48,152 nucleotides of DNA from a virus (Duplodnaviria > Caudoviricetes), in the IMG/VR virus record IMGVR_UViG_3300049926_000016, positions 1-48,152 of that record; one strand, written 5' to 3'. The position numbers and the translations under genes are program-made. This document shows positions 1 through 48,152 of this stretch, in pieces. Position 1 is the first letter of the stretch, and each line of letters begins with the position of its first letter. The notes beneath the pieces were generated by a model. The model was given only the letters and a program-made list of their open reading frames with translations. It ran no database searches and was not told the origin of the DNA.

Positions 1-3000
1 GTCATCTGCTCCTCCAGCCACGGCAGGTCGTGCTCGCCCTTGACGACGGTGAAGGACCCGTTGACCTTCTCGACGTGGCCCATGACGTCCCGGCGGAGGG
101 CGGCGGAGTCGGCGTACTTCGAGCCAATCTCCTGAGCGAGGCTGTCCGGGTGGATGGTGCCAATCTCGCCGATGGAGTTCGGCGTGGTCCACGCTCCCTC
201 ATGGAGGAGCTTCACGTTGTCGAGCGTGCCATCGGCGTTGACGACCTGACGGCGCCAGCCGGACAGCATGTCCTGCACGTACTGGACGCCGACCTCGTTG
301 TCGGTGAGCGTCCGGCCCGCCAGCTCATTGTAATGCGCGGCGATGGCGCTGAACGAGGTCTGGAAGCGGTCCCCGGCGGCCAGCAACTCGGCCTTCATGG
401 CCGGGTCGGCACGCTCGGCAGCGGTCGCAAGGTTCTCCAGCGCGCCCTTGACAATGTCGCCCATCCGTGCGTGGAGCATGTTCGTCATGTTGGCCGCGAT
501 GATGCCGTCCGGCGCCCCGGCAATCTGGCTGAGCCGGTGGCCGAGGAGCCCCGACTGCTGGAGCCCGTTGCGGATGCCCTCGGTGAAGTTCGAGCGCGTC
601 GCGTACTCGGGCATGTCCATGCTGAAATGGCGCGCGAGGCCCGTCCGGCCCATGTTCTCGGTGATGGCGGCCAGTGCCTTGTTGGCGTCGGAGAGGACGC
701 TCTTGCCCACCGGCATGACCCCGTACAGGATGGAGTAGTACGGCGCGTCGGTGATGCGCTGGATGACGAACATCGGGTTGAAGGCGTACCGCAGCTTGTT
801 ATACATGCCGACCGTCATCTGCCCACTCACGTTGGACCCGTCGCCCAGCTTGCGGAGCGCGACGCGCGCCTGCTGCGACAGCTTCGAGGTCACGCCCATG
901 ATGCGGAAGTCGCCCTCGGCGGCCTGCAACAGGTGGTCCATGACAATGTGGATGTTCAGCGTCGAGCCATCGGCGAGGCGCAGGTCGTTCGGGATGACCT
1001 CGGCCATGGACTTCCACAGGTTGTCGGGCTTGATGCCGCGCACATTGGAATAGTCGAGTCCGGCGACCTCCTTGGCCCGCTTCATAATCTCCTTCGAGAT
1101 GGGCTTCGGGATGCCAGCCTCGAACGTGCTGCGCTCGAACCGCTGGTCGATGTTGCGGACGAGCCGCTGGCCCGTCACGCCGTCGCGGAGGGTGTTGATG
1201 AGGGCTTCGCCCGACTCGATGGGCTTGGTCAGGCTCTCGGCCTTGGACGGGCCGATGACCTGCCCGAGGATGTTGCGGGTCGTGTCGCTGAACCGCTGGC
1301 GCCCGAAGGGAACGGAGTCCACGACGTGGCTGAATGTCGGCGCGCGGTCGATGGTGTAGCGGCCGGTGGAGGCGTCACGCTTCAGGCCCCATGCGACGTC
1401 CTCGCTCGGCTTGAACCCGACCTTCCAGAGGGGCTTCTGCGCGGCCTCGATGACCGGACCAACGGGCGCGCCGGGGTGCTCCATGTAGACGACGTCCGGC
1501 TTGCCGCCGGTCCACCCGGGCGGGGCGTATTGGTCGTCCCACGGCACGCGGCTAGTCTCTTGGAACCCGCCCTTGCCGTACAGCTCCGGGAGGCGCCCGG
1601 CCTCATCGAAGGCGTCGAGCTTGGTGGCGCCCAGCGCGTGAAGGTGCGGGATGAGGTCGGCGATGGCGCCCTTCTCGCCGACGTTGAAGACGGACACGAG
1701 GTCGCCGTCGGGCTTGATGGCGAACCCGGTCTTGCCGTCGGCCGACAGGAACGTCCGCATCCCCCGATACTCGCCCTTGCCGTAGACGTAGAGCGTGTCG
1801 GATACCGCACGCCCGTTCGATTTCGTGACCTTCGCGGCCTTCCGCACGGCGGCGAAGAACTTGTCCCCGGAGACGGGCGCGATGCCCTTCTGCGTCAGGG
1901 CGTGCTCGGCGTCGAGGACGGCCTGCTTGGACCGGACGGCCAGCTCCTCGGGCGGGACGACGCGCGGGTCGCCGATGATGCTGTTGCGGTCAAGGAAGTC
2001 GCGCACGGGGCGCAGGGCCGGGTGGGCCAGCTCGGAGTCGAGCGCGACCCGCGTGATGCCGCCGCGCTCCAGCTCCTTCTCCAGCTCCTTGACCAGCTCC
2101 TCCAGTTGGACCTTGCCGCCCGTCGCGTAGCCCATGTTGGCCAGCGTCGGGTACCGCTTGGCCAGCGCGTTCCACTCGGACGTGGCGGTCTCGATGGGCA
2201 TTTCAATTGTCTTGGCCTCATTCTTCAGCGCGCCACGGATGTTGGCGATGATGGCCTCGGCCGTGACGTTGTCCAGCGTCTCCGGCGCCATGAGGACGAG
2301 GTCCTTCAGGGGGAGCGCGCCGTCATACGCTGCGGCGTCCACCTTGGCCAGTGCACCTGCCATGCCCCGGTCGGCGTTCTTGTAGGTGATGGCGTGGAGC
2401 GCGGACTGCATGTCGTGGTTCATGGTCCCGAGGCGCTTGGTCCAGTAGGGCACGTCGTTGCCGAAGACGGTCGTCATCCGGGCGGCGAGGTCGGCCTTCT
2501 CCTCGACGGTGAAGGTGTTTTTGGAGACCTTCTGCATGTGGTCCGTCAGCTCGGTGACGGCATCGCGCGTGCCGTTCTCCATCAGGGTCGGGGCGATGTC
2601 ATCCGGGTGCGTGTGGACCAGCTCCTCCGCGAGCCCTTCGTTGAGCACGTCGTGCTGGGCCTGAATGAGGACGTACTCGTTGGTCTTGTCGAGCGCGTAG
2701 CTGCCGATGGCGCTGTCAACCTCGGGGCCGACGTGGAACTCCCGCGCGAGCGCCCGGATGTCCTTGACGTTGAAGGCCCCGTAGCTCCGCTGGAACGCCT
2801 CGGCCGCGACGGCGTTCTTCATCTCGGTGACGGCCCGGGCGACACTCGACGGCTTGTAGACGGCGAGCGGGTCAATCATGCCGCGCATAGTGCGGGCGAC
2901 CGGACCCATGACTGAGTCGGCCTGAACGGTCTGCACGAGCACCGCCAGCTTCTCCGTGTTGGATACGGCCATGTCGAGTTTCTGGGCGATGGACGCGCCC

Positions 3001-4256
3001 TCTCCGGCCAGCTCCGCCACGCGGACGCCGGTCGTGACGCCTAGCTTCGCGACAGACCCGACGCCGATAGTGGCGTAGGTCAGCGGGTCCGTGACGGCCG
3101 CGCCGAGGACCTGTCCGATGGGGTTGCGGGTGATGCCCTGCCCGTGGGAGACGATGTAGTCCATGGCGTGCTGGTCGGACCACGCGCCCGACTTGACGGC
3201 CTCGACGGCCTTCTTCTCGACGTCGCTCACTTCGAGCCCGGCGTCATATCGGGCGGTGGCCTCCACGATGCGGTTACGACCGGCGCCGACGTTGGCGCGG
3301 ACGTACGCCTTGGCCTGCTCCTCCGTCATCTTGCCCGCCTTCATCTGCTCGATGGCGTAGGTGGCCTCGTCGCCGGTCTTACGCCCGGCCGCGATGTCAG
3401 CCTGCGCGCCGGACCAGTAGCCCTCGAAGTTGGTGAACCCGCCCATGCCGCCCGGGTCGAAGACGCCTGCGCCGCCGAGCCCGCGCTGGACCTCCGCGCC
3501 CGGCAGCCCGAGGAAGGACTGCACGGCCTGACTGAAGGCCCCGCCGAGGGAGCCCGTCGTGGTGCGACCCGTGACGAGGCCCGGCACTGACCCGAGGAAG
3601 CTGTCGTGCTGCATGTCGTCCAGCATCTTCAGGTACTCCATATTGAAATCGGCCTTCAGGTTCCCACCGCCGAGGACGTCCTTGTCGGCGTTCGTCTTCA
3701 GGATGAGCCAGTCGGCGTACATCGGGTCGTTGCCCGCCTTCAGCTTGGCGCCGATGCTGTCGAACGTCTCGTCGGACCCGCCCGGCAGGTAGCCGAGGGG
3801 CACGTGCGAGGCGACGGTGGCGACGGCCTCGACGGGCTTGACGACGGTCCAGTCCCCGATGCCGTGAGCGATTGCGCCGAGCCCACCGGCCGCGCGTCCG
3901 AGGTCGCCGATGACCGGAGCGCCGCCGAGGACGGAGCCGTTGCCCTGCCCGAACAGTGCGTGCCCGAGGTTGTCGAGACCCTTGCCGAAGCGGTCCCACG
4001 GCATCATGCCGTCAATCTCCGCCTGCGTCGCCTCGTGCCACGAGCCGTCCGGGTTGACGGAGCCGGACGGATATGCGCCACCCGCCGCCGGGCCGGTCGC
4101 AGCGGGAGCTACGCCGAGACCGGCCAGTGAACCAGCGGTCGCGGGCGCGGCGGGGGTGGCCAGACTCCCCGGCTGAGCCGGGGCGATGGGGGCCGTGGTG
4201 GCGGGAGCCGTCGGCGCTGGCGTGTTGCCGGGGCCGAGCTTGGAATAGTCCAGCAT
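1..4256 (-). CDS. Giant internal virion/ejection (polyvalent-type) protein, N-terminal >1400 aa; runs off the left edge
   Basis: ATG at 4256 directly follows the TAG of the upstream gene (MLDYSKLGPGNTPAPTAP...). The segments I translated have no stops, and the ORF track has no closed ORF in this frame. Contains a GNAT-like segment at ~1476-1800. Confidence 0.85.
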   Translation of the reverse strand, partial: MLDYSKLGPGNTPAPTAPATTAPIAPAQPGSLATPAAPATAGSLAGLGVAPAATGPAAGGAYPSGSVNPDGSWHEATQAEIDGMMPWDRFGKGLDNLGHALFGQGNGSVLGGAPVIGDLGRAAGGLGAIAHGIGDWTVVKPVEAVATVASHVPLGYLPGGSDETFDSIGAKLKAGNDPMYADWLILKTNADKDVLGGGNLKADFNMEYLKMLDDMQHDSFLGSVPGLVTGRTTTGSLGGAFSQAVQSFLGLPGAEVQRGLGGAGVFDPGGMGGFTNFEGYWSGAQADIAAGRKTGDEATYAIEQMKAGKMTEEQAKAYVRANVGAGRNRIVEATARYDAGLEVSDVEKKAVEAVKSGAWSDQHAMDYIVSHGQGITRNPIGQVLGAAVTDPLTYATIGVGSVAKLGVTTGVRVAELAGEGASIAQKLDMAVSNTEKLAVLVQTVQADSVMGPVARTMRGMIDPLAVYKPSSVARAVTEMKNAVAAEAFQRSYGAFNVKDIRALAREFHVGPEVDSAIGSYALDKTNEYVLIQAQHDVLNEGLAEELVHTHPDDIAPTLMENGTRDAVTELTDHMQKVSKNTFTVEEKADLAARMTTVFGNDVPYWTKRLGTMNHDMQSALHAITYKNADRGMAGALAKVDAAAYDGALPLKDLVLMAPETLDNVTAEAIIANIRGALKNEAKTIEMPIETATSEWNALAKRYPTLANMGYATGGKVQLEELVKELEKELERGGITRVALDSELAHPALRPVRDFLDRNSIIGDPRVVPPEELAVRSKQAVLDAEHALTQKGIAPVSGDKFFAAVRKAAKVTKSNGRAVSDTLYVYGKGEYRGMRTFLSADGKTGFAIKPDGDLVSVFNVGEKGAIADLIPHLHALGATKLDAFDEAGRLPELYGKGGFQETSRVPWDDQYAPPGWTGGKPDVVYMEHPGAPVGPVIEAAQKPLWKVGFKPSEDVAWGLKRDASTGRYTIDRAPTFSHVVDSVPFGRQRFSDTTRNILGQVIGPSKAESLTKPIESGEALINTLRDGVTGQRLVRNIDQRFERSTFEAGIPKPISKEIMKRAKEVAGLDYSNVRGIKPDNLWKSMAEVIPNDLRLADGSTLNIHIVMDHLLQAAEGDFRIMGVTSKLSQQARVALRKLGDGSNVSGQMTVGMYNKLRYAFNPMFVIQRITDAPYYSILYGVMPVGKSVLSDANKALAAITENMGRTGLARHFSMDMPEYATRSNFTEGIRNGLQQSGLLGHRLSQIAGAPDGIIAANMTNMLHARMGDIVKGALENLATAAERADPAMKAELLAAGDRFQTSFSAIAAHYNELAGRTLTDNEVGVQYVQDMLSGWRRQVVNADGTLDNVKLLHEGAWTTPNSIGEIGTIHPDSLAQEIGSKYADSAALRRDVMGHVEKVNGSFTVVKGEHDLPWLEEQM

Positions 4257-8728: not shown

Positions 8729-8741
8729 TGTGCTGCCTATC

Positions 8742-12949: not shown

Positions 12950-13943
12950 CCTTGATGGTGTCTCGGGCGCGGGAACGGGGGTGGCCTCCCTTGATGGCAG
13001 CGGCGAGGAGTCGTGTCATTGCGTCCGCCAATGGTACACCCTCCTCCATCGCGGTCATAGCCGCCCAGTGGATGACGTTGTTCTGGTTGCCGTCGGCGGC
13101 GTTCTCGATGGCCTTCTCCAGACCCTCCAGCCCGTAGGTCCACGTCTTCGGCCACTCCCACCACGGGACGCCCTCGACGTAGGTCTGGGTGAACGAGGTC
13201 ATCGACTTCTTCTCTGGCTTGCCGTCAAGGAACTGGTCCTCGGCCGCGAACCTCTCGCGGACCTTCTCCGGCAGGATGTCGGGCATGTAGGTTGTCGCGT
13301 CCGGCGACACCAACGGGAAGACCCATTCGTAGGTCCCGTCAACGGTGCCGTCGGACGCGAAGTGGAGCGAGGGAGGCGCGACGACGTATCCGCCGAGCCC
13401 CTTGAAAAGGAGGGTACGCGTAGGGTCCGGTTGCTGGCCGTCCCCCAGCCATCGGTTCTTGTCCGCGCCGGGCATCAAGAACCACACGTGGAGTCCATTC
13501 TTGGTCTTCGCGACGACGCTCTCGCCCGCCTCGACCTTCCAGCCGAGTTCGAGCATGAGGTTGGCCGCGCGGTCGGTGTCGATGTCCGCCACGTAGTAGC
13601 CGGGCGGGATGAGGATTGCAATGCCGGTGGTCCCGTGGTCCTCGCTGAAGGCGGCCAGTACGGCCTCGACCTCGGCGGGCGTCTCGGGGTCCCCGTTGAA
13701 GGAGTCGTCCCACGACCAGCTCTCACCGTGGACGCGGCCGTTCGGCTTCTTCCCGGTGAGGGCGAGGATGTGGAGCCCGGCCGACACGTAGTCGAGCGCG
13801 GCCTGCTGGAGAGGGGTCAAGGTGCTCCTTTCAGGAGATGCAGGCCCGGCACCGGCCGCAGTAGGAGGACCGAAGTCCATTCCTGCGGGAGTGGTGCCGG
13901 GCAGGTCCCGCGTCGTGGTCTGCCGGGTAGCTACGTCCGACAT
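12921..13943 (-). CDS. Bifunctional DNA primase/polymerase (prim-pol)
   Basis: VADIDTD, TKNGLHVWF and GGYVVAPPSLH motifs; start taken at MSDVATRQ. Confidence 0.88.
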   Translation of the reverse strand: MSDVATRQTTTRDLPGTTPAGMDFGPPTAAGAGPASPERSTLTPLQQAALDYVSAGLHILALTGKKPNGRVHGESWSWDDSFNGDPETPAEVEAVLAAFSEDHGTTGIAILIPPGYYVADIDTDRAANLMLELGWKVEAGESVVAKTKNGLHVWFLMPGADKNRWLGDGQQPDPTRTLLFKGLGGYVVAPPSLHFASDGTVDGTYEWVFPLVSPDATTYMPDILPEKVRERFAAEDQFLDGKPEKKSMTSFTQTYVEGVPWWEWPKTWTYGLEGLEKAIENAADGNQNNVIHWAAMTAMEEGVPLADAMTRLLAAAIKGGHPRSRARDTIKGAYKRAPRA

Positions 13944-13966
13944 TGCCGCATCGCGAGCCGATGTGG

Positions 13967-14155
13967 TTAGCCGAGGCGCCGCTTCTGGACCCACGCGTTG
14001 AGGTCCACAGCGAGGATGAGGTACGACCTCCCCCGCTTGGTGGGCTCGCGCGTGGCAAGCAGCTCGTGCTTTCGGATGGCGCGCCGAAGGGTCTCGACGT
14101 TGCATCCGACCAGTTCAGCCGCCTCGGCCGTGGTGAACTTCCGGGCGGCCACCAT
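13967..14155 (-). CDS. Excisionase/MerR-like HTH DNA-binding protein
   Basis: FTTAEAAELVGCNVETLRRAIRKHEL...YLILAVDL matches the HTH_17-type pattern. Confidence 0.85.
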   Translation of the reverse strand: MVAARKFTTAEAAELVGCNVETLRRAIRKHELLATREPTKRGRSYLILAVDLNAWVQKRRLG

Positions 14156-14337
14156 CAGCGAACGCCCATCTGGTTGAGGGCCGCCCCCACCCGCGCGTCG
14201 ATGCCCTTGCGGACCTCGGCCCGAGTCAGTCGGCGCGGCTTGTTCTGGACCCAGCGGGACCCATTGCCGTATGACTCGGTGCGGGTGAGAACGGTGCCGT
14301 CATCGCGCTTGACGGTGACGGCGACCGTGACGTCCAT
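14155..14337 (-). CDS. Hypothetical protein, 60 aa
   Basis: Fills the operon gap, overlapping the next start; typical codon usage. Confidence 0.65.
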   Translation of the reverse strand: MDVTVAVTVKRDDGTVLTRTESYGNGSRWVQNKPRRLTRAEVRKGIDARVGAALNQMGVR

Positions 14338-14340
14338 GGC

Positions 14341-14820
14341 CTACTTGGCCTTCGCGAGCGGCTTGGCCGGGCCGAGGAACGCCTCGATTTGCGGCCAGCC
14401 CTTGTCGTTGTGCGTGACCTGCACCATGACCTCGCGACCCTGCACCTTGGACAGGTCCACGGGGTTCTCGGCGGTGCTGGCCAGCCAGAGCTGGAACTCG
14501 GCCGGGGTGAGGAGGCCCTTCAGGTAGAAGTACGAGTTGCTGCGCTCGTCCGAGCTGAAGACCTTGACCGACTTGGCCTGCCGGAGGTCCAGCGTGTCGT
14601 CCGGGCTCTCGGCCTCGGGCAACATGACCGGCTTCCGCTCCTCATCGAGGATGGTCGCGCCGAAGTCGAACCGACCTCCGTCATCGACCTTGCCGAACTT
14701 GTCCTTGTCGGTCTTGAACTGCTCGACCACTCGGTAGTCGATGTCATTGAACCGAGCGACGTAGATGCCGTCCTCGATTTCGGGCGCTGAGCCCGAGGCT
14801 GCCGGGGCGGGGATGTTCAT
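14341..14820 (-). CDS. Putative phage ssDNA-binding (OB-fold) protein
   Basis: SD GAAAGGAG before the ATG at 14820; EDGIYVARF...GREVMVQVTH pattern typical of phage SSB-like proteins; first gene of the replication operon. Confidence 0.6.
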   Translation of the reverse strand: MNIPAPAASGSAPEIEDGIYVARFNDIDYRVVEQFKTDKDKFGKVDDGGRFDFGATILDEERKPVMLPEAESPDDTLDLRQAKSVKVFSSDERSNSYFYLKGLLTPAEFQLWLASTAENPVDLSKVQGREVMVQVTHNDKGWPQIEAFLGPAKPLAKAK

Positions 14821-14867
14821 GCGTGCTCCTTTCGAGCAATCCCGACCAGAGCGTCGGGTGAGTCCCA

Positions 14868-14897
14868 ACTATACCTCCACTGCTCAACACCTGTCAA
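14868..14897 (-). promoter_or_regulatory. Sigma70-type promoter driving the leftward operon
   Basis: TTGACA-18 bp-TATAGT on the minus strand. Confidence 0.8.
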
Positions 14898-14914
14898 CCC
14901 CTCTATGGGACCCT

Positions 14915-15311
14915 CGATTTTTGGATTGTGGCGGGTATGACGAGTTGAGCCTTTTGGGGACAAACTACTAGCTGGAGTTCTTCACGAGGGGCTTTCCTCG
15001 GCAACCCGGCACAACCCGTCATTTTGGGCCAAACCCGTCATTTTTGGGGCGATTTTGGGTCCCCGGGGGGCTGCATGTCCGTCCGCCGCCCTTCCGCCCC
15101 GAAAGACCCCCCACCCCGGCGGGTCTCCGCAAGTCGCCGCAACCGGCCGACCGCGCGCTCGTGGACGGTGGCACGGTGGCTCGTGGACATGCTCGACATC
15201 ACGACACCAGTGCACAAAACGAACACCCGTACTACAAGCGGTGCCAACACGCACCATCCAGTCTCGGCCGATACCCCCCGGGGGTATTGCATTGCCATTG
15301 CCCGGGGGTAT
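14915..15311. repeat. Non-coding repeat/palindrome region (candidate origin or genome terminus)
   Basis: TTTTGG x5; AACCCGTCATTTT at 15013 and 15032; GCTCGTGGAC x2 (~15157, ~15179); palindrome ATACCCCC-C-GGGGGTAT at 15271-15287; CCCGGGGGTAT again at 15301. Confidence 0.6.
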
Positions 15312-15376
15312 GCTGGACGCAGTCCAGCCGTCCGGAACAACCGGCCGGTGGGCGGAGCACGGAAGGGGTAGCCAAG

Positions 15377-15778
15377 ATGGCCACCAGCACCAGCACCCGG
15401 AAGCGCGCCACGGCAGCCGACATCGCAGCGGCCGTGAAACTGGGCAGCATCGCACCCGATGCCGAAGTCGTGACGGCCGACGAACTGGCCGAGCGGGATG
15501 CCGAAACCCGCGCCACCGTAACGGCCGAGCGGCCGAGCCCGAGCCTGTCGGCAGCCGAGCACCAGTGCGGCATCGTCGGATGCCGTCATGGCAGCGCGCA
15601 TCCGGTCGTCTCGCAGCCGGACCGTCAGGTCAAATTGCAATGCCCGGGATGCGGCGCAGTCGCCCGCATGACGGCAGCGGCCATCGCCCGGACGGCCGGG
15701 GCGGGCATCACCTGCAATGGTGACGGCCAGACATTCACAGTGGCAGCGCGGCGCACCTACTCCCGGAAGTCGGCATGA
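15377..15778 (+). CDS. Zn-binding hypothetical protein
   Basis: SD GGAAGGGG; MATSTSTRKR...; CGIVGCxH and CPGC..C motifs. Confidence 0.75.
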   Translation: MATSTSTRKRATAADIAAAVKLGSIAPDAEVVTADELAERDAETRATVTAERPSPSLSAAEHQCGIVGCRHGSAHPVVSQPDRQVKLQCPGCGAVARMTAAAIARTAGAGITCNGDGQTFTVAARRTYSRKSA

Positions 15779-16863
15779 CTGCGAGCGCGCAGCCGAGCAC
15801 CGGGACGTCCAGCACCAGCACCGACAGCACGAAAGGGACACCGACCGTGGACACGAGCACCCCTGCGGGCAAACTGGCGGCGGCCATCGACGCGAACATC
15901 CCGGCCCTACTGATGGGCGCACCCGGGACGGCCAAGACGGCCACCATCGAAGCAATTGCAATCGCCCGGGGGGCGTATCTCGAAGTCGTCATCGCGTCGG
16001 CCCAAGACCCGACGACAATCCTCGGCATCCCGATGCCGACCGAAGACCGGAAGTACACCGAACCGACCATGCCCGGGTGGGCGCGGCGCATCAACGCAGC
16101 GCATGACGCGGGACGGCCGACCATCCTGTTTCTGGACGAACTGACGACGGTCCCGCCGTCGGTGGCGGCGCCATTGCTGGGCATCGTCCAGTCCCGTCGG
16201 TCTGACGGCTGGACACTCCCGGCCGATACTCGCATCGTGGCAGCGGCCAACCCGCCAGACCTAGCGGTCGGTGGCTGGGCAATCGAGCCCGCCATGGCCA
16301 ACCGCTGGACGCATATCGACTGGCCGAGCCCGGTGGCCGACTGGACAGCATGGGCGGCGGCGCAGTCCAGCCCGACGCTCCGGTTGCTGGCCGACTACAT
16401 CCGGACCGTCCCGGAGCAATTGCTCGCAGTCCCGACCGACATCCGGAAGCGGTCGGGCGCATGGCCGAGCCCGCGCTCGTGGACGAACGCAGCCCGGCTC
16501 GTGGACACGACGGGCGACTACCTGATGGCCGCGCTGGCCGTCGGCGATGCCGCTGCGGCGACGTTCGCGAACTGGGCATCGAAGCGTGACGTTCCATCGG
16601 TGGCCGACATGCTCGCCGGGACGGTCCCGCTGCCCGAACGGCATGACGCGTTCGTCACGTCATTGCAATCCCTGACGGAAGCGGTGACGGCCGAGACGCT
16701 GGGCCGAACGCTCGACATCCTGACGGCCGCCGTGGCCGTTGACGCGAGCGTCGTGGCCATCGTCACCCGGAAGATGGCGCAGCGCGGTTTCGTCGTCGGT
16801 CTGGCCGGTCTCGTGGCCACCATCGAAGCGGCCGGAATTGACTTCGGGTCGGTGGCGGCATGA
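15775..16863 (+). CDS. MoxR-type AAA+ ATPase
   Basis: Walker A GAPGTAKT, Walker B LFLDE, sensor AANP, EPAMANRW arginine finger, PSPRSW. Confidence 0.92.
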   Translation: MTASAQPSTGTSSTSTDSTKGTPTVDTSTPAGKLAAAIDANIPALLMGAPGTAKTATIEAIAIARGAYLEVVIASAQDPTTILGIPMPTEDRKYTEPTMPGWARRINAAHDAGRPTILFLDELTTVPPSVAAPLLGIVQSRRSDGWTLPADTRIVAAANPPDLAVGGWAIEPAMANRWTHIDWPSPVADWTAWAAAQSSPTLRLLADYIRTVPEQLLAVPTDIRKRSGAWPSPRSWTNAARLVDTTGDYLMAALAVGDAAAATFANWASKRDVPSVADMLAGTVPLPERHDAFVTSLQSLTEAVTAETLGRTLDILTAAVAVDASVVAIVTRKMAQRGFVVGLAGLVATIEAAGIDFGSVAA

Positions 16864-18074
16864 CGGCCGGACGGTTCAACGTAGACCCCCGCATCAACGC
16901 TGCAATCGAACGCACGTTCGAGACGCACCCCTACTACGCGACGGCCGTTACCCGGTTGCGCATCACCCCGGATGCCAACGTCCCGACGATGGCCACGAGC
17001 GCGGAATGGGTCACGCATTACAATCCGGCGACGGTCGCCGGGTGGACGCGTGACGAGACGGCCGCCGTCATCGTCCACGAACTGGAACACCTACTCCGGG
17101 ACCATAACGGCCGCTGCGGCGACCGCGACCATGGCCAGTGGAACGTCACGGCCGACGCGGAAATCAATCAACGGCTGCCCGGTCTCCCGGCCGGAGCGGT
17201 GTACCCGTCCACATTGTCATTGCCCGAGCGTCTGACGGCCGAGACGATGTACGCGTTGAACGGTGGGAAGCGCGGCGAGCCCGAGCCCGAGCCCGGAGCG
17301 GGTGACGGTGACGGTGGTAGCGGCGAGGGTTCCGGCGATGGCGCCGGAGCACCCGGCGACGGTCCCGACTGCGGCAGCGCGGCCGGTGGCGCCACCCGAC
17401 CATGGGAAGCCAACGACGAACGGCAGCCGGGCGCCGGAGCGGCCAACGGCGGCGACGATGCCCGGAAGGATGTTGCCCGGTCCATCATGGGCGGAGCGGC
17501 AGCCGGAACGGCCGATGCTGACGAACTGCGCGAGTGGGCCGAGACGGAACTGGGCATCGACCGCGCGGGATGGTACCGCGCGCTGGCGGCGGCCGTCGGT
17601 CATACGATGGCACCGTTCGGTGCACCGACCCGCTGGGTCTGGCCGGGGCGCCGGGACATCCGGGACATGGGCGGGGCGATGGTCCCGCGCTGGACCGGCG
17701 AACGGCCGTCATGCGCAGTCGTCATTGACACCAGCGGCAGCATCACCCAACTGGACATTGAAATGGCAGTGGCAGCAGCCCACTACATCGGCCGCATGGC
17801 CGACATCCGGGTCTACGGCTGCAACACCCAAGTCGTGGACTACGGGACCACTGTACCCGAGCGCATCCGGGGCGGCGGCGGGACGAACATGGGGGTCGGC
17901 ATCGGACGGGCCATCGCGGACGGTGCCAAGGCTGTCGTCGTCATCACCGACTGCGAGACCCCGTGGCCGGAGAACGCGGGGGTCGCGGTCATCATCGGAG
18001 CCAACGCGAGCGCGAGCACCTACGGTGTCCCGGACTGGATGACGGTCCTCCCCATCATGGCCGAGACCGACTGA
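16860..18074 (+). CDS. DUF2201-like metallopeptidase + VWA domain protein
   Basis: HELEH zincin motif, WNVTADAEIN, acidic/Gly linker, MIDAS DTSGS, GGGGT, VITD. Confidence 0.92.
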   Translation: MTAGRFNVDPRINAAIERTFETHPYYATAVTRLRITPDANVPTMATSAEWVTHYNPATVAGWTRDETAAVIVHELEHLLRDHNGRCGDRDHGQWNVTADAEINQRLPGLPAGAVYPSTLSLPERLTAETMYALNGGKRGEPEPEPGAGDGDGGSGEGSGDGAGAPGDGPDCGSAAGGATRPWEANDERQPGAGAANGGDDARKDVARSIMGGAAAGTADADELREWAETELGIDRAGWYRALAAAVGHTMAPFGAPTRWVWPGRRDIRDMGGAMVPRWTGERPSCAVVIDTSGSITQLDIEMAVAAAHYIGRMADIRVYGCNTQVVDYGTTVPERIRGGGGTNMGVGIGRAIADGAKAVVVITDCETPWPENAGVAVIIGANASASTYGVPDWMTVLPIMAETD

Positions 18075-18126: not shown

Positions 18127-18223
18127 CCATGTCCGGAAGAACTTGCGCGCCCGCGACGCCACTCCTCCGGGCATGACAATGTCGCCTGCGGCTCGAACTT
18201 CAGAGACATTGCAATGGCGCCTG

Positions 18224-18265
18224 CCAGCTCCAGCTCCAGCTCCTCCAGCTCCAGCTCGCCAAGCT
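18224..18265. repeat. CCAGCT tandem repeat (5 copies plus 1 variant)
   Basis: CCAGCT at 18224, 18230, 18236, 18245, 18251; CAAGCT at 18260; intergenic. Confidence 0.85.
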
Positions 18266-18325
18266 GCTGAAGCAACATTGCAATTGCCTTATCCGGTGGC
18301 TGCCCACGGGCCTGAAGATTGGGGG

Positions 18326-18355
18326 TTGACAGGTGTCGAGTAGTGGGCGCATAAT
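18326..18355 (+). promoter_or_regulatory. Sigma70-type promoter driving the rightward early operon
   Basis: TTGACA-18 bp-CATAAT; SD GGAGG before the ATG at 18406. Confidence 0.8.
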
Positions 18356-30246: not shown

Positions 30247-30775
30247 GCCCGCCCACAAGACGGCCCACGTGCCGTGCCCGAACGGAGCCGCCAACTGGGC
30301 GGACTGTGACGAGGCCGTCGCTCACTCGTGGGGTCCGTGCAAGGCCATCGTCGGCAAGCATGAGCCCGAGCCCTGCTCGCGCTGGGCTTTCGATGACAAG
30401 GGCTACTGCGGCCAGCACTACGTGGCCAAGGTCGAGGGGGAGCGGGAGGCCGAGCGCATTGCAATTGCCAAGGCGGCGCTGGCGCAGCGGATTGACGAGT
30501 ACATCGCGTGGACTGCCGAGCATCCGTCGGTCTGGGACTCGCGCCTCGCGCCGAGGGTGGCTGCGGGGGCAGGGCTCGAACCTGCGACCAACCGGGTAAC
30601 AACCGGCCGCTCTACCACTGAGCTACCCCGCAAGGGTCCGCATCGGATTGTGGTGGAGCCGGAGGGAGTCGAACCCTCGTCGGTGGTCTCGCCCGAGCCC
30701 GAGGGCCTGAGCGCCGCCACCCGCACCAATCGGCCCCACAGGCTAACCGAGCTGGAATTAGCTGCCGACGGCTGA
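30236..30775 (+). CDS. Hypothetical Zn-binding protein; C-terminus runs antisense through the RNA genes
   Basis: First ~105 aa have typical codon usage and C..C..YCGQH; the last ~70 codons overlap the tRNA and TLD antisense. Confidence 0.55.
   Translation: MARRPAHKTAHVPCPNGAANWADCDEAVAHSWGPCKAIVGKHEPEPCSRWAFDDKGYCGQHYVAKVEGEREAERIAIAKAALAQRIDEYIAWTAEHPSVWDSRLAPRVAAGAGLEPATNRVTTGRSTTELPRKGPHRIVVEPEGVEPSSVVSPEPEGLSAATRTNRPHRLTELELAADG
30558..30632 (-). tRNA. tRNA-Asn (GTT)
   Basis: TGCGGGG TA GCTC AGTGGTA GAGC G GCCGG TTGTTAC CCGGT TGGTC GCAGG TTCGAGC CCTGC CCCCGCA G CCA: full cloverleaf, G73, encoded CCA. Confidence 0.96.
30651..30737 (-). ncRNA. Mini-tmRNA: tRNA-like domain only (87 nt)
   Basis: GGGGCCG/CGGCTCC acceptor with G3:U70, A73, CCA; stemless D-loop; long P2-like helix capped by a tetraloop; GAC linker; T-arm GAGGG-TTCGACT-CCCTC; no anticodon loop or tag ORF. 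Confidence 0.85.
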
Positions 30776-31110: not shown

Positions 31111-31138
31111 ACTATACACCCGCCGCGACGGTTGTCAA
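31111..31138 (-). promoter_or_regulatory. Sigma70-type promoter for the RNA operon
   Basis: TTGACA-16 bp-TATAGT on the minus strand. Confidence 0.75.
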
Positions 31139-31154
31139 GCGTTTTCCGCAGGCC

Positions 31155-31277
31155 CTATTGCAATTTGCGGAACGCGCACTCTTGGCACCACAGGCCGGGC
31201 ACGGCCCAGACTGGCCAGTGGCCGAAGGTGAGAATGTGGGCGGCCACGGCGTAGGCCCAGTAGAGGCGCTGCATCAT
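31155..31277 (-). CDS. 40-aa hydrophobic peptide (not in the ORF track)
   Basis: ATGA overlap; MMQRLYWAYAVAAHILTFGHWPVWAVPGLWCQECAFRKLQ. Confidence 0.5.
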   Translation of the reverse strand: MMQRLYWAYAVAAHILTFGHWPVWAVPGLWCQECAFRKLQ

Positions 31278-34578: not shown

Positions 34579-34736
34579 GCGTGGCTCACCGGGTTCTTCC
34601 GGGCATAGGTCGTGAACTTGCGGTCGGCAGCCGCGACCCGCTTGCGTGCGGCGAGGATGCGGAGGGTCGCGACGTCCTGAACGATGGTCGCGGCCTCGAT
34701 TTTGGTCTTGTCGTCCTGCACGTCAATGGCCTCCAC
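34575..34736 (-). CDS. Small hypothetical protein
   Basis: GTG start inferred; coupled to its neighbours. Confidence 0.5.
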   Translation of the reverse strand: MEAIDVQDDKTKIEAATIVQDVATLRILAARKRVAAADRKFTTYARKNPVSHA

Positions 34737-35025: not shown

Positions 35026-35057
35026 ACGGGCACTCGCTCACGTTCATGCCACACAGT

Positions 35058-35753: not shown

Positions 35754-35756
35754 GGC

Positions 35757-42094: not shown

Positions 42095-42097
42095 GGT

Positions 42098-42763: not shown

Positions 42764-42766
42764 GGC

Positions 42767-42961
42767 TTACCCCGGCTTGACTTCGTGGGTGTCCTGCACG
42801 ACGCAAGCGCACTTGGTGCACTGGCGCATGGTCTCATCGACGTGGTCGGACATGAGATGGACCGGCCCGTTGGCCCCGGTGCGGCAACCGCGAGGGCAGG
42901 GGTCGGAACTGGTCAGGACTGTACGTCCCTTTTTGGCGACGGGAGTGCTCATGGTCGCCAT
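42767..42961 (-). CDS. Small Zn-binding protein
   Basis: CPRGC...CTKC. Confidence 0.55.
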   Translation of the reverse strand: MATMSTPVAKKGRTVLTSSDPCPRGCRTGANGPVHLMSDHVDETMRQCTKCACVVQDTHEVKPG

Positions 42962-42964
42962 AGT

Positions 42965-43147
42965 CTACTCCCTCACGTCCCGGGACACAAGGTCCCCGGC
43001 GAGGTACCGCTCGTAGTTGAGCGCGATGTCGGCGTCACGGGCGACGCGGTCGTTGGCCCAGACGCAGACGGCGCATGGGCAGCCATCGAGGGGGGCCGGT
43101 CGGCCGTCGTGGGCGGGGGCAGCGGGGGCAGCGTTCGCGGTCTTCAT
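42965..43147 (-). CDS. Small hypothetical protein
   Basis: ATGA overlap start MKTANAAP; CPCAVC. Confidence 0.55.
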   Translation of the reverse strand: MKTANAAPAAPAHDGRPAPLDGCPCAVCVWANDRVARDADIALNYERYLAGDLVSRDVRE

Positions 43148-44562
43148 GCGTAGGACTCCCAAAACCACATGTGGCTTCCATCGACGGACCCCGGGTCGAG
43201 GACCGTTCCAGTCAGAGTGACAGTATACGCGCTGGACCCGGCGGGCACAAGCGGCCACGTCGTAGCGTTGGTGAAGGTGAGCCAGCTCCGGCGAAGCTGC
43301 TCGACGCCGTTCTCCTCCACCGTAAAGACCTTCTCCCGCTTGAACCGCAGGAGACGCCGCGACACCTTCGAGTACGAGACCACGGTGTAGTTGACCGTGA
43401 TGTTGATGGCGGCGCCACCGGCCGTCAGGGAGACAGCGAAGGCGTTGGCGGTGAGCCCGGTGGCGATGACGTAGTAGTTCGTGTTCAGGGCCAGTCCGGT
43501 CCCCGCCGTCAGGGTCGTGAAGTAGACCCGGTCTCCGGCGACCAGCCCGTGAGCGGTCTTCGTGACGAGGTCCGTACCGGCGTCCGCCGTGGCCCCGGTG
43601 TAGGCCGGGTCGGTGGTGGCCGGAATTGCAATGGTGTAGTTCGAGGCGCCCGCGACGACGGTGATGACCCCCGCCTGTGCGCCGACCGCCATGAGCATGT
43701 TGAGCGGGGCGTTGTACGTGCCCCGGTTCAGGAAGGTGCCGCTGAAGGTCTGGTACTTGGCGGCCTCGACCCGGGTGTAGAGAACCGTGATGTCCACGAT
43801 GGCCCCGCCGTTGGTCAGGGAGACCTTGAAGTCGTTGGCCGTCAGCCCGGTGGCGCTCACGTAGTACGACGTGTTCAGCGCGAGCCCGGTGCCCGCCACG
43901 AGACGGGTGAAGTAGATGCGGTCGCCAGCGACAAGCCCGTGCGCCGTAATTGTAATGAGGTCCGACGTCGCGGCCGTGCCGTTGACGAGGACGACGGTGT
44001 CGGCGAAGGCCACGTCCTGTGGCACGACGCCCTCGAAGGTAGGGTCGCGCATGGCGAACATGCCGGACCACGTCATGGCCATCGCGTCTCCATCCACGCC
44101 GCCGTGGCTGTCCCGGCTGACGGGGGCGTGGAACCCCTTGGGCATCACGAGCGCGCGCATGTCGATGGTGCCGCTCGGGTAGTTCGCTTGGTCGTTGGTC
44201 GGGACGCTGAAGTACAGGGGCAGGTAGCCCTTGTCGCCCGGGATTTCGCGGGCCGCAAGCACGGGGCTCATCGTCGCCCGGAGCTGCCACAGGATGTCGT
44301 AGCACAGGGCTCGGGTCTTGCCGTACACCGTGCCGCCGAGCCGGATGCGCCGCCCGCCGAGGAACGGGTTGCCGACGTCCATGCCGTCCGCCTCCGCGCG
44401 CTTCTCGCTGAACTGGACGATGTCCACGTCATCGGGGTCGAAGGTGTCGATGACCGACCCGGCGATGCCCTTGCCCAGACCATCCGTGCTGTCAACGGCG
44501 TCGGCGACCGCCGAGTCGTTCAGCTTGAAGTTCCGGTAGATGATGTCCCGAGTCGTATCCAT
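43144..44562 (-). CDS. Distal-tail (Dit)-like protein with two AHGL domains
   Basis: SD GGAGG before MDTTRD; GRRIRLGGTV...LRATMSP and NRGTYNAP motifs resemble Dit proteins. Confidence 0.7.
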   Translation of the reverse strand: MDTTRDIIYRNFKLNDSAVADAVDSTDGLGKGIAGSVIDTFDPDDVDIVQFSEKRAEADGMDVGNPFLGGRRIRLGGTVYGKTRALCYDILWQLRATMSPVLAAREIPGDKGYLPLYFSVPTNDQANYPSGTIDMRALVMPKGFHAPVSRDSHGGVDGDAMAMTWSGMFAMRDPTFEGVVPQDVAFADTVVLVNGTAATSDLITITAHGLVAGDRIYFTRLVAGTGLALNTSYYVSATGLTANDFKVSLTNGGAIVDITVLYTRVEAAKYQTFSGTFLNRGTYNAPLNMLMAVGAQAGVITVVAGASNYTIAIPATTDPAYTGATADAGTDLVTKTAHGLVAGDRVYFTTLTAGTGLALNTNYYVIATGLTANAFAVSLTAGGAAINITVNYTVVSYSKVSRRLLRFKREKVFTVEENGVEQLRRSWLTFTNATTWPLVPAGSSAYTVTLTGTVLDPGSVDGSHMWFWESYA

Positions 44563-44581
44563 TGGCCTCCCATGGTACATG

Positions 44582-44616
44582 AACAGGCCCCCTGCCGCAA
44601 TGGCAAGGGGCCTGTT
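44582..44616 (-). terminator. Hairpin after the capsid gene
   Basis: AACAGGCCCC.TGCC-loop-GGCA.GGGGCCTGTT long stem; weak U-tract. Confidence 0.65.
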
Positions 44617-44650
44617 GTTGGTCCGCTAGGGGAGCTTCACGCTCCAGCCG

Positions 44651-45883
44651 CTAGAGCTGGGACGTGTGCTCGATGCGCCGGTACCGGGCGGGGGTGACGC
44701 CAGTGGCGTTGGCACCCTCTCCCATGATGACGGCCCCGAACATGCCCTTCCACCCAATCTGGGTGAGCTGATGCAGCGGGTCCGTGGTCCCACCCGGCTG
44801 GGTGAGGTACGTCTGGATGCTGCCCCAGTCGCCGAAGGCGTACGCCTCCGGTCCGAAGATGACCGCATTGAGCACGTCGTTGACCACGTTGGCCGTGAAG
44901 GCCGAGCTGTCCGACGTGATGTCGATGGCCGCGCCGTTGAGCGTTGCCGACAGCTTGAAGGTCGTCGCCGTGACAGGCGCCACGACGAAGTACGTGTTGC
45001 CTGCGGTCAGGCCCGCACCGCCCGTGATGGCGGTGATTTTGATGCGGTTCCCCGCCACCAGACCCAGAGGGGCCGAGTAGGTGATGAGGTCTGTGGCCGC
45101 GATGGCCGCCGCACCCGCGTTCGTCAGGACCGGGCCGTTGACAGCCGCGAAGCTGACAGCCGCCGGGGACTCGATGAACCGGACGCCTGCGTACCGGCCG
45201 ACTTCCCCTGTGAACAGGGCAGCCGAACCCGCGTAACGCTGGGCGTCAATCCACCCGCCGACCGCCGTGTCGCTTTCGAGGTCGAAGGTCGAACCCGGGT
45301 GCACGATGGCGCGGTAGGTGCCGTCCGAGAAGGTCGGGACCGCAGCAGCCTTCAGGCGAGCGACGGTGAGCTTCACGAGCGCGCCCGTGAGGGCGGAGTT
45401 GCTGTTGATGGTCGCACGGGAGGTTGCCCCACCCGCATACGTGACCTGCGCACCAGCCGACAGGACCTCGGCGACCCTGCGGTCGGCCGTGGCGATGGCG
45501 TTGCGTGCGACTCGGTCGGCGGCCTCGCTCAGGAGGTCGAAGGGCGACTCCATGAGACCGATGTCCGAGAGCTTGATGACGCGGCCTGCCTGATTGGCAG
45601 AGAATTCCTCGTAGCCGATGGCGAGGTCTTCCGTGGTGTTCGGCGCGCCCTCGTTGAGCCACGGGAGCGTGCCCGGGGTCGGCGTACCGGCCACGACGGA
45701 CATGTCCGCGATGTTGATGAACCGCATGACGTTGTTCGTCCCCTTGACGAACGCGGCCTCACGGAAGTTGCCCGGAAGAAGGTGCGGGAGCGGTGCTCGG
45801 AGCAGTTCCTCCAGACGCTTGTTCACCAGAGCGACAACCGTCTGGTTGAAGTTCGTGGTGGCGGTGGAAACGATGGTACCCAT
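44651..45883 (-). CDS. Major capsid protein, N4-gp56 family, with an inserted AHGL-type domain
   Basis: LNEG, AIVHP...DL, W..AQRY, GEVGRYAGVRFIES, FGPEAY, DPLHQ...GWK motifs; SD GGAG. Confidence 0.93.
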   Translation of the reverse strand: MGTIVSTATTNFNQTVVALVNKRLEELLRAPLPHLLPGNFREAAFVKGTNNVMRFINIADMSVVAGTPTPGTLPWLNEGAPNTTEDLAIGYEEFSANQAGRVIKLSDIGLMESPFDLLSEAADRVARNAIATADRRVAEVLSAGAQVTYAGGATSRATINSNSALTGALVKLTVARLKAAAVPTFSDGTYRAIVHPGSTFDLESDTAVGGWIDAQRYAGSAALFTGEVGRYAGVRFIESPAAVSFAAVNGPVLTNAGAAAIAATDLITYSAPLGLVAGNRIKITAITGGAGLTAGNTYFVVAPVTATTFKLSATLNGAAIDITSDSSAFTANVVNDVLNAVIFGPEAYAFGDWGSIQTYLTQPGGTTDPLHQLTQIGWKGMFGAVIMGEGANATGVTPARYRRIEHTSQL

Positions 45884-45918
45884 TGGGGGTGTTTAGCTTT
45901 CTCCGGTCTTGCCGGTGT

Positions 45919-46470
45919 CTAGTCCCAGCTCGGCGTCATGGCCTTCAGTCGAGCCTTGATGTCCTCGGACGTCTCGGGCTTGACTTCGGTGCCGACTGCG
46001 CTTCCGCTGGCGGCGCGATTGCTCGCGTTGGGGTTCTGTGGCGCCGGGGGTTCTGCCCCGGGGACCTCGGCGAACAGGACCTCGAACTCGGCGAGCCGGA
46101 CCTCATCGGTGATTTCCGGGAGTTTGGCTCGGGCGTTCGGGAACTTGATGTCGAGGATTTTGGCGTTGGCGTTGACGTCCGCGTCGGTTGCTCGCTTCTC
46201 AGCGGCCTCCAACTTGGCTTGAAGGGTGGCGATGTCCGCTGCCTTCTGGCCTTCTGCATCGAGGTCGGCCTTCTCGTACTTGACGAGCTTGTCCTGTGCC
46301 TCTTTGAGCTGGCGAGCGGCTTCTGAACGAGCTGCCTCGGCTCCTGCTTGACGCTTCCGTGCGAGGGCCAATTCGGTCTGCTCCGGCGAGCCTGTCGGGT
46401 CCGGGGTCGCTGTCGAGCCCTCGCCTTCTGGGGTCGTGGTGGCGGCCGTGCCGTCTGCGGTTTCTGTCAT
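45919..46470 (-). CDS. Capsid scaffolding protein
   Basis: Acidic N-terminus, coiled coil, directly upstream of the capsid gene. Confidence 0.8.
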   Translation of the reverse strand: MTETADGTAATTTPEGEGSTATPDPTGSPEQTELALARKRQAGAEAARSEAARQLKEAQDKLVKYEKADLDAEGQKAADIATLQAKLEAAEKRATDADVNANAKILDIKFPNARAKLPEITDEVRLAEFEVLFAEVPGAEPPAPQNPNASNRAASGSAVGTEVKPETSEDIKARLKAMTPSWD

Positions 46471-46524
46471 GTCGGGAACTGTACTACCTTTCTGCGGCGA
46501 TTGCAATAGCAAGCCGCACTACCG

Positions 46525-48152
46525 TCACTGTGATGTGACGAAAAGCTCTTGCAACCGGGCGAGGTCATCCTTCAGGATGGGCGCCAGTGCTGCCGCCGGG
46601 GTGGGTCCGGAGATACTGGATGAGGTTCCGCTGGCCGGTGCACCGCCACCGGACGGGGCCGCGCCGGACGGAGCGCCGAGCCCCGACAGCGATTGCAATG
46701 CGGGGTCGAGCTGGGGCTGGTCCCCGCCAGTGATGGTGTCCACGGCGCCCGGGACCTCGTTGAGGGTGGAGACGACCTGCTTGACCCACCGCTGCGGGCT
46801 GATGGTGGACAGCTCGTCGGCGAACATGGTACCGAGGTCCTTGCCTCCGAGAACGTCCTTGAACATGGGCGACATCCGCGCCGAATGGTCGGACCAAGGC
46901 AGCGACGGCGTCAGGTAGTCGGCGAGGAACGCCCCGGCGGACTTGTCCACCGAGTGCATCTTCGAGTCGAAGTCGGTGTCGTACTCGCGCTGGAGGGCGA
47001 TGGCGCGCTGGACGTCGTTGATGATGTAGGTCGCGGCGTAGGGGTTCTTCGCGAGGAACTTGACGCTCTCCGGGAGGACCTTGCCCCACATGTAGCTCGA
47101 CGGGTAGAGGCCGAACAGGGGGTGGTTCAGACTGCGCTCCAGCACGTTCCGCTTGGTCTGCATCTCGGCGAGCCGGAAGACGTCCTGCTGCGCGTCCTGA
47201 ATTTTGTTCTTCAGCAGGCTCACGACCAGTGCGTGGGTCCGATTGAACGGCGTGGCCTGCGCGGTCGGCACCTTCTCCACGAGGTCGCGGAGGTCGGAGC
47301 GGGTGCGCGAGCCCAGCTCGGCGCCGATGTTGTCGCTGACCCAGCGCGAGAGGGACTGCATGTAGCCTTCAACCTCGGGGTTCGGGTGCGGCTTGCCGGA
47401 CGCGATGCGCTCCTTCACCATCTCGGGGAAGTTGTTGCCGAAGAAATTGTCATAGGGGTCGGCTTCGAGCGCGTGCCACTGGCCGTCGGCGCCCAGCATC
47501 TCCGTCTTCTCGGGCGGGATATGGCCGACCGTCAGCCGGTCCTCGCCGCCGACGTGGCGCCCCGGGCCAATCTGCCCGGGCACGTCGGCCTCCTTGACGC
47601 GGAAGATGGCCTCCCCCTCGTTGCGGTTGTAGAACGAGGTCGGCTTGCCGGTGGTCAGGCCGATATGGTCCGGGATGCCGCCAGCAGCGGCTCCGGGCTT
47701 CTCGACGCGGTAGGCGTAGCCGGGCTCGACCTTGAAGGACTTGGGCAGGCTGGCGACGGCCGGGCGCGGCGCGGCGCCGGGCGCCGACTTCGGCACGACA
47801 TAGTCGAACGAGGCGGGCTCGATGTGCGGGTTGACCGCGCCGGTCGCGGCCTCGAACTCCTGCATGAGGGTGTCCTGCGCCGAGACGTCAAGGTGCGAGC
47901 GCCAGACCTTGGTCCACTCCTCCAACGGCTGGCTGGCCTTCCCGGCCTTCAGGAATTGAAGGAGCTGGCCCATGTGCGTGTTGATGTCCTTGCCGCCAAT
48001 GTTCGACGCCATGGTCCCGGACAGGTACTCCCACGGGTCCATGCCACGGTTCCGGGCCTCCATTGCAATGAGGTCCTGCGCCTCCTTGGCGTAGTGGGCG
48101 CTGATGTCGAGGCCGCCTTGGTCGATGGGGCGGGCGAGGTTCTGCCAGTAGC
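46525..48152 (-). CDS. C-terminal part of a large virion protein; open at the right edge
   Basis: The frame of ORF 46525..48063 stays open to the window edge (...YWQNLARPIDQGGLDISAHYAKEAQDLIAMEARN...); probably the same gene as 1-4256. Confidence 0.8.
   Translation of the reverse strand, partial: YWQNLARPIDQGGLDISAHYAKEAQDLIAMEARNRGMDPWEYLSGTMASNIGGKDINTHMGQLLQFLKAGKASQPLEEWTKVWRSHLDVSAQDTLMQEFEAATGAVNPHIEPASFDYVVPKSAPGAAPRPAVASLPKSFKVEPGYAYRVEKPGAAAGGIPDHIGLTTGKPTSFYNRNEGEAIFRVKEADVPGQIGPGRHVGGEDRLTVGHIPPEKTEMLGADGQWHALEADPYDNFFGNNFPEMVKERIASGKPHPNPEVEGYMQSLSRWVSDNIGAELGSRTRSDLRDLVEKVPTAQATPFNRTHALVVSLLKNKIQDAQQDVFRLAEMQTKRNVLERSLNHPLFGLYPSSYMWGKVLPESVKFLAKNPYAATYIINDVQRAIALQREYDTDFDSKMHSVDKSAGAFLADYLTPSLPWSDHSARMSPMFKDVLGGKDLGTMFADELSTISPQRWVKQVVSTLNEVPGAVDTITGGDQPQLDPALQSLSGLGAPSGAAPSGGGAPASGTSSSISGPTPAAALAPILKDDLARLQELFVTSQ

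Follow-up and report, generated by a model that had tools for sequence, protein, structure and literature searches.

What are a short palindromic octamer and its variants doing at 69 places in a phage genome of 66.6% GC, most of them inside genes? The question is raised by a 48,152-nucleotide caudoviricete sequence (IMG/VR record IMGVR_UViG_3300049926_000016, positions 1 to 48,152; the window hereafter means this whole stretch), throughout which the word ATTGCAAT and its variants are written into coding DNA. Our analysis points to a reader that is encoded by the phage itself. The C-terminal zinc ribbon of the protein at 15377-15778, the first early gene (the ribbon protein), very probably binds the octamer directly, since the presence of this ribbon and the state of its arm match the word across genomes. 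Quite possibly, judging from gene content and motifs, the word is a self-tag through which the ribbon protein tethers proteolysis to phage DNA.

The octamer array

The word family was first noticed in a reading of the letters of the window (the original prediction), and the recount agrees with it: all 27 coordinates given for ATTGCAAT are exact, and the approximately 42 variant copies are 14 of ATTGAAAT, 14 of ATTGTCAT, 11 of ATTGTAAT and 3 of ATTGGAAT (both strands), for a family total of 69. The set is sharply bounded, including ATTGNAAT and ATTGTCAT and leaving ATTGACAT (0 copies) and ATTGCCAT (2 copies) outside. Some 0.1 copies of ATTGCAAT had been estimated from composition; we compute 0.11 for the window from an order-2 Markov model and 0.12 from base composition. 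The claims that sites fall in several frames on both strands and carry rare codons also stand: 61 of the 69 sites are fully contained in called genes, with frames 31/13/17, and 43 of the 91 ATT codons sit in sites. In 1000 synonymous shuffles that kept each protein and its codon use, a comparison proposed with the original prediction, gene interiors held on average 0.48 copies of ATTGCAAT (maximum 3) and 2.3 family sites (maximum 7), against 22 and 58 observed. Four sites (18836, 20782, 21141 and 10998) are made of overlapping stop and start codons at gene junctions.

The asymmetric variants occur both ways on the coding strands of seven genomes (ATTGAAAT 27 and ATTTCAAT 22; ATTGTCAT 24 and ATGACAAT 28). 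One earlier claim is contradicted, namely that flanking bases extend the symmetry: across seven genomes the first flanking pair is complementary in 23 of 113 ATTGCAAT sites, where 35.8 are expected. A hairpin or extended palindrome is ruled out by this lack of complementarity in the flanks.

Spacing, selection and turnover

The mean gap between the 69 family sites of the window is 698 bp, as the earlier figure of one site per 0.7 kb implied, and the gaps are more even than under uniform placement (coefficient of variation, CV, 0.68; P=0.0005); for ATTGCAAT taken alone the regularity is not significant (CV 0.81, P=0.19). G001, a relative of 48,198 bp with terminal repeats, has 32 copies of ATTGCAAT and 69 family sites, and the evenness of its gaps (CV 0.60) was matched in 0 of 5000 simulations. 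Regularity exceeds what the opportunities for writing the word would give in the window (P 0.043), in G001 (0.0008) and in the relative G008 (0.018); in G004 the value is 0.22. The largest site-free gaps of the window are 43949-46500, with the capsid and scaffold genes, and 13615-15634, the control region. The capsid and scaffold genes (44651-46470 in the window) hold 0 sites in 12 relatives, but few opportunities are on offer there, only 0-2 weak ones in each capsid gene.

Use of an opportunity depends on the distance to the next site: weak opportunities were used in 22 of 89 cases at 100 bp or less from another site and in 26 of 37 at more than 800 bp, counted over 11 related and hence not independent genomes. 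Copies of one variant lying less than 500 bp apart are scarce in the same orientation (3, with 9.3 expected) and in the opposite one (1, with 9.4 expected), and in two complete genomes repulsion holds for both orientations, however the copies are labelled. No strand-specific spacing was found, per-strand spacing being no better than label shuffles (pooled P 0.61). We infer from this a signal that covers duplex DNA, each tag reaching over a few hundred bases; this would explain why a site adds little when another is close by.

Selection for the word is visible in the proteins as well. The tripeptide Ile-Ala-Ile/Met is written with the word in 16 of 17 cases in the window and in 17 of 17 in G001, where codon use would give about 1%, and the tripeptide itself is in excess (17 against 5.7 expected). 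At all 23 loci with terminases 76-90% identical, some of them near-duplicates, ATTGCAAT is present, whether GATC is avoided there or not. Codon alignments show part of the sites retained at synonymous positions (20 of 22 helicase genes, 17 of 24 terminase genes) and many others that are lineage-specific; amino-acid changes, such as IAM for VAK, accompany some of the sites. Shuffles, spacing, conservation and turnover together support the central claim of the original prediction, that of a selected, orientation-independent site at the level of DNA.

An artefact of codon use or composition is excluded by the shuffles and the spacing. Extremely improbable, too, is the idea that codon bias, avoidance of GATC or a mutational drive produced the word as a side effect, with no reader. 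Avoidance of GATC (0 copies against 198 expected) does push some ATC codons to ATT, but shuffles that preserve codon use yield 2.3 sites where 58 are observed, the same array stands in relatives that retain GATC, and both the distance-dependent use and the link to one gene require a reader.

The gene that tracks the word

Within the phage family the word is patchily distributed, which made a search by gene content possible. Genomes of deeper branches (G002, G006:C4, L054 and L064) are without the ATTGCAAT array but carry a second word, GTGTAAAC (23 copies against 0.26 expected in 94 kb). In another branch G578 has 12 copies of GTGTAAAC, and 8 near-complete relatives are wordless beyond one relic. 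G006:C4 and G578 both encode an SprT-like HExxH peptidase with a C-terminal zinc ribbon, and these proteins are 50% identical although the terminases are 38% identical. When 14 genomes were searched in six frames with the SprT-ribbon profile, the only matches were these two genes and the genes of the 15377 type in the window, G001 and G008. Among the 13 genomes holding the early region, the ribbon is thus present in 5 of 5 with a word and in 0 of 8 without; G002, a fragment, has no match to the profile. The base of the terminase tree is without firm branching order, so the order of the word changes is not inferred. G578 and its kin (L157, L213-L215) have beside GTGTAAAC a further enriched word, ATTGAGAC (6 against 0.18).

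SprT-ribbon genes occur in 164 phage and 73 plasmid records, of which 13, chosen to span hosts, were examined. In the first three, GTGTAAAC is the top 8-mer: Maureen with 17 copies (0.19 expected), Zeta1847 with 22 (0.08) and 4A with 13 (0.22). Stuff has 34 copies against 0.04 expected in 40 kb, with a CV of 0.45, and Venkman has 34 copies of GTTTAAAC against 1.7. The word GTTTAAAC, or both words, recur in a Sphingobium plasmid (8 copies, 0.04 expected), Arya (7), Pan1 (16) and R26L (21), with 0 for the reversed control. Brahms, Katzastrophic and Dismas have 0 copies and CN1 has 1, and these are exactly the four whose ribbon arms lack Q-x-T-R. Taken together, and with G578 and G006:C4 included, the GT(G/T)TAAAC word is found in 11 of 11 genomes whose ribbon arm is intact, from unrelated hosts, and in 0 of 4 whose arm is decayed; the Fisher P of 0.0007 overstates this contrast because three of the negatives are related. 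In 8 of 9 genomes a site lies inside the SprT gene or at most 150 bp from it.

The ribbon protein and its operon

The ribbon protein consists of N-terminal helices, a His/Cys cluster and the C-terminal ribbon, with an arm that reads Q80-P-D82-R83-Q84-V-K86 ... R97-M-T99. The arm residues are invariant in 32 aligned homologues, and Q-x-D-R-Q is present in 34 of 34. In an hhalign comparison (96.8%, E 2e-10) the ribbon is homologous to those of phage SprT-like proteases; 15377-15778 is also found, at E 6e-4, by a profile built from SprT ribbons alone. Q80, R83, R97 and T99 are kept relative to the SprT ribbons, and D82 stands where these have T; this exchange may help to switch the word from GT(G/T)TAAAC to ATTGCAAT. 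An AlphaFold model of the protein has a pLDDT of 81, and a fold search with the modelled ribbon returned generic zinc ribbons only (best Z 3.4). A predicted ribbon homodimer scores 0.30, with the mark at 0.42, and counts neither for nor against a dimer. One octamer site (15634) lies inside the ribbon gene. No isolate phage with a ribbon of the window type was found.

The HExxH peptidase motif is lacking in the ribbon protein and in two longer homologues. It is present in 15 of 15 SprT-type proteins and in 0 of 5 of the window type, each of which is followed by genes for an AAA+ ATPase and a peptidase. In the window these are the MoxR-type and DUF2201 genes (Table 1), the latter being the predicted source, judged by its motifs and synteny, of a peptidase acting in trans. 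Both genes follow the ribbon gene in all four related contigs found, all of them word-rich, and the pair is missing from 11 of the 14 compared genomes, those without the ATTGCAAT family.

Sites at promoters

Some sites touch predicted promoters. The region before the ribbon gene carries the near-variants ATTGCATT (15286) and ATTGCCAT (15291) over a TTGCAT-16-TATGCT element; the same spacer holds ATTGTCAT in G001 and near-variants in two further relatives. Just before this early promoter lies an inverted repeat (15271-15287) with C and G runs, kept in G001 and L248, which we take to be reminiscent of CsoR/RcnR-type operators. At the position of the 18173-18277 cluster there are three sites in G001 and two in G008. 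A family word occupies the late-promoter position in 12 of 14 contigs (the other 2, judged by pattern search only, had no match), and in the deeper branches GTGTAAAC is placed in the same promoter, within the spacer (G002) or over the -10 element (G006:C4).

In the window, 6 of the 69 sites touch non-coding DNA, which is no enrichment (P 0.20). The idea that every site is a -35 element was rejected: TAnnnT follows 16-18 bp on in 9 of 421 oriented sites (2.0 expected), and 6 of the 9 are one late promoter. Sites at promoters would give the ribbon protein a second, regulatory role.

A possible tethered protease and its alternatives

In the mechanism that we favour, tentatively, the ribbon of the first early protein would land on octamers in duplex phage DNA and would keep the AAA+ ATPase and the HExxH/vWA peptidase, both encoded in the same operon, attached to the phage genome at intervals, so that proteins loading on this DNA would be cut or stripped. 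The targets would be DNA-bound proteins of the host: silencers, defence motors or trapped enzymes. The peptidase that is fused to the ribbon in SprT proteins would here be supplied in trans, together with an AAA+ motor. Such a tethered protease accounts for the even spacing, the indifference to orientation, the early expression and the kept catalytic motif.

Several observations weigh against it. Sites in core promoters, and an enrichment of sites in non-coding DNA in 8 of 9 genomes tested, are repressor-like. The AAA+/vWA pair tracks ATTGCAAT as well as the ribbon does, and for MoxR-vWA-peptidase pairs a role in virion assembly has been proposed (PMC7824862). The SprT proteins with decayed arms retain HExxH although their genomes are wordless, therefore the peptidase can exist without tags. 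As to sampling, the 13 SprT-bearing records were hand-picked, and three of the four negatives are related Microbacterium phages; the ribbon evidence for ATTGCAAT itself comes from one clade (5 contigs). A deep branch with terminases about 58% identical (L025, L066 and L067) carries the word, with 6 copies of ATTGCAAT and 5 of ATTGTAAT in 14.7 kb of overlapping fragments, but these do not span the early region and stand outside the ribbon comparison. Finally, one pooled logistic fit gave repulsion for opposite orientations only, a result not upheld in the two complete genomes.

As the main rival, the same ribbon protein might act instead as a stoperator-like repressor or roadblock, silencing promoters and genes to set late-gene timing, immunity or a carrier state, with the peptidase as an induction switch or unrelated. 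We regard this as rather unlikely, even though it would fit the word as the -35 element of the scaffold-capsid promoter in the window clade, the operator-typical variable place of the sister word in that promoter, the sites that flank the reader's own gene and the non-coding enrichment already mentioned. Arthrobacter cluster AZ is moreover without an identified repressor, and its phage Liebe, with a truncated SprT, forms clear plaques where those of Maureen are turbid (10.1101/2025.05.26.655371). Liebe and Maureen, however, also differ by three more changes, and the truncation hits protease sequence and spares the ribbon. Repression sits poorly, too, with the 61 of 69 sites that lie in genes in either orientation, with spacing that tracks distance and not transcription units, and with the lack of any integrase, partition or repressor family match in scans of the window. 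Tethering and repression are not exclusive. Quite improbable is another coverage task for the ribbon protein, such as condensing or coating, shielding from nucleases by occupancy, or a packaging mark. Even, orientation-blind spacing would suit any coat, and the word is far rarer in candidate hosts, with 561 copies per Mb in the window and no more than about 74 per Mb in any of 301 Chloroflexota genomes; yet such a task leaves the conserved HExxH of the fused forms and the peptidase operon unexplained, and TerS, which was tried as reader, does not co-vary with the word.

That the reader is another protein altogether (a host DNA-binding protein, an ejected virion protein, the AAA+/vWA pair, HTH_17, or a primase-polymerase priming at the word) is improbable. 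The AAA+/vWA pair, as said, tracks ATTGCAAT too; an 836-residue protein has 12 clade-invariant columns shared only with L025, against 7 and 7 for two other outgroups (its best ESM Atlas match, at 0.86, is a lead only, and 369 relatives are without informative names); and the NrS-1 PrimPol reads an 8-nt template word (PMC8718748). Against all of these stands that the related word accompanies the SprT ribbon in hosts and virion types that are unrelated, and that near relatives sharing the virion and primase genes are wordless. Priming, an idea taken from NrS-1 (PMC8718748, PMC12205980), was rejected because spacing is not strand-specific; the three residues that the primase-polymerase shares only with L067 are no more than in other outgroups, and no mosaic genome was found. 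Of the binders put forward in the original prediction, the HTH at 13967-14155 (HTH_17) does not track the word: it is absent from word-bearing G578, and its recognition helix is near-identical in L064, which has mostly the other word, and divergent in L067, which has ATTGCAAT. The host protein it also named is an unlikely reader, given that the related word goes with a phage gene in hosts that are unrelated. The ribbon protein, our best candidate, was not among the binders put forward there. A host word found no support in 301 Chloroflexota genomes (five of them, G183, G282, G048, G155 and G237, unpublished and counted for that figure alone), in 20 samples no longer than 20 kb, or in host contexts, and host copies look random. 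In the bin with the sister phage, 12 of 36 copies of GTGTAAAC are on the phage contig.

Comparison with known systems

Cluster A mycobacteriophages carry stoperators, read by L5 gp71 and Bxb1 gp69. They resemble the array in having many copies of one site genome-wide, some of them over promoters, and a phage-encoded reader (a candidate in our case). Stoperators are asymmetric and oriented with transcription (PMC4351075), whereas the site of the window is a palindromic 8-mer in either orientation, located mostly in genes and at even intervals. A zinc ribbon is the candidate reader, the window yielded no integrase or repressor match, and HTH_17, the only HTH match, does not follow the word. Two defining features of the stoperator class, asymmetry with orientation and an HTH repressor in a temperate phage, are thus lacking. 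Cluster O mycobacteriophages have a 17-bp palindromic repeat whose function is not known, present at about 34 orientation-free sites in a phage not obviously temperate (PMC4351075). That repeat differs in its 7-3-7 structure, in having 14 of 34 sites intergenic and denser at one end, and in that no reader has been identified (PMC4351075).

The phage and plasmid SprT-like proteases, such as Lizalica gp46 and Maureen gp49 of Arthrobacter cluster AZ, share the homologous ribbon with its Q-x-x-R arm. The protein of the window differs in lacking the HExxH domain, in the D for T in its arm, in its word and in heading an AAA+/vWA-peptidase operon; it is not an SprT protease proper because the peptidase is missing from the chain. 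For the proposed function the model is SPRTN/Spartan and Wss1, in which a zincin peptidase is brought to DNA by a small zinc-binding domain. These read DNA structure at crosslinks and no sequence word, and we know of no genome-wide tag like the present one for them. Both are described as DNA-dependent metalloproteases in a preprint on cluster AZ. For the SprT protein this preprint predicts a C-terminal domain that binds DNA and an involvement in lysogeny; in the text available TGTAAAC and GTTTACA have 0 occurrences, and no binding site is given (10.1101/2025.05.26.655371).

Other short words in coding DNA, Chi, HIP1 and DUS/USS, are read by host proteins and abundant in the host, and Chi is polar. 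The word of the window, by comparison, follows a phage gene, is rare in the candidate hosts tested and shows no strand specificity. In Chi-rich lambdoid phages, too, coding DNA has taken up a short word contrary to its codon use (PMC12315714). D29 Gp36 was considered as a parallel and does not fit, as it binds GC-rich direct repeats (PMC12266134).

Genome context

Gene calls and family scans identify the window as phage (terminase, capsid, Prim-Pol, D5 helicase, exonuclease and tRNA-Asn). Two very large genes are taken as internal virion proteins by their position and size. The giant gene of Table 1 spans both ends of the window with about 24 codons missing relative to a relative, so the window is, like G001, a circular genome, near-complete at about 48 kb; the gene's phrog_2563 match is to what we take to be a GNAT-like domain of polyvalent proteins. 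Family scans of the window genes gave no match to methyltransferases or nickases, which leaves the earlier suggestion of a nicking or modification mark without support. A sister phage sits in the bin of a Dehalococcoidia assembly, and that bin is the only one of the 301 Chloroflexota genomes with a prophage relative.

Table 1. Coordinates of the array, genes and promoter-associated sites in the window
Feature	Position	Strand	Basis
Octamer array, 69 sites, both orientations	327..48069	.	Counts, spacing, shuffles
First early gene, 133 aa, C-terminal SprT-type zinc ribbon; candidate reader	15377..15778	+	Homologues, hhalign, model
MoxR-type AAA+ ATPase, second operon gene, predicted partner	15775..16863	+	Pfam AAA_5
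DUF2201 protein, HELEH (73-77) metallopeptidase domain and vWA domain DTSGS (290-294)	16860..18074	+	Pfam DUF2201_N, DUF2201; motifs, synteny
Promoter-like region before ribbon gene	15271..15314	+	Read from sequence
Cluster of three sites (18173, 18208, 18277) upstream of sigma-70-type promoter 18326-18355	18173..18355	+	
Site 31157 just upstream of sigma-70-type promoter (31138-31111), facing tRNA region	31111..31164	-	Sequence
Site 46500 as -35 hexamer (TTGCAA-17-TACAGT), predicted scaffold-capsid promoter	46471..46507	-	Sequence and relatives
Giant gene, ~2000 codons, split by window ends	3-4256 and 46525-48150	-	Residues 793-928 match phrog_2563

Some further features were observed. GATC, CCWGG and TTAA are nearly absent from the genes of the window (0, 1 and 0 against 198, 213 and 16 in shuffles); avoidance of CCWGG is almost family-wide and that of GATC patchy, which suggests host restriction systems. 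At 30561-30737 on the minus strand the tRNA-Asn is preceded by an 87-nt, tRNA-like element that corresponds to the ends of the tmRNA model with the body missing, and scores 45.2 bits, under the 47-bit threshold. The early gene 24506-25486 (plus strand) has relatives found only through a match of 29-39 residues in genomes otherwise without the gene, and its C-terminal stretch resembles the N-terminus of the major capsid protein.

Implications

Searches of the open-licence literature turned up neither word and no SprT ribbon that reads a sequence. What is new in the window is the ATTGCAAT word, together with the changed arm and the split operon. It is possible, as a wider and more tentative proposition, that zinc ribbons of mobile elements read eight-letter self-tags and carry a Spartan-like protease, fused or in trans with an AAA+ motor, onto their own DNA, where it destroys host binders, and that the code can be re-programmed, the T-to-D change of the arm going with some 70 sites rewritten in coding sequence. 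Phages with iterated words that lack an explanation have been described (Cluster O), and many proteins are annotated as 'SprT-like protease' with neither substrate nor site. The link between word and SprT gives both a testable function in cultured phages whose laboratory hosts are harmless (Maureen, Liebe, Stuff and Zeta1847). To this the window contributes another specificity and a form that is split, which point to the word-reading residues and test the part of the peptidase. Should the protein be only a repressor, it would represent a stoperator-like system and may name the missing repressor of cluster AZ. If the tethered protease is real, phage and host would have in their conflict a hitherto undescribed way of marking self and non-self, and its ribbon would be a sequence-specific DNA-binding module of 50 residues.

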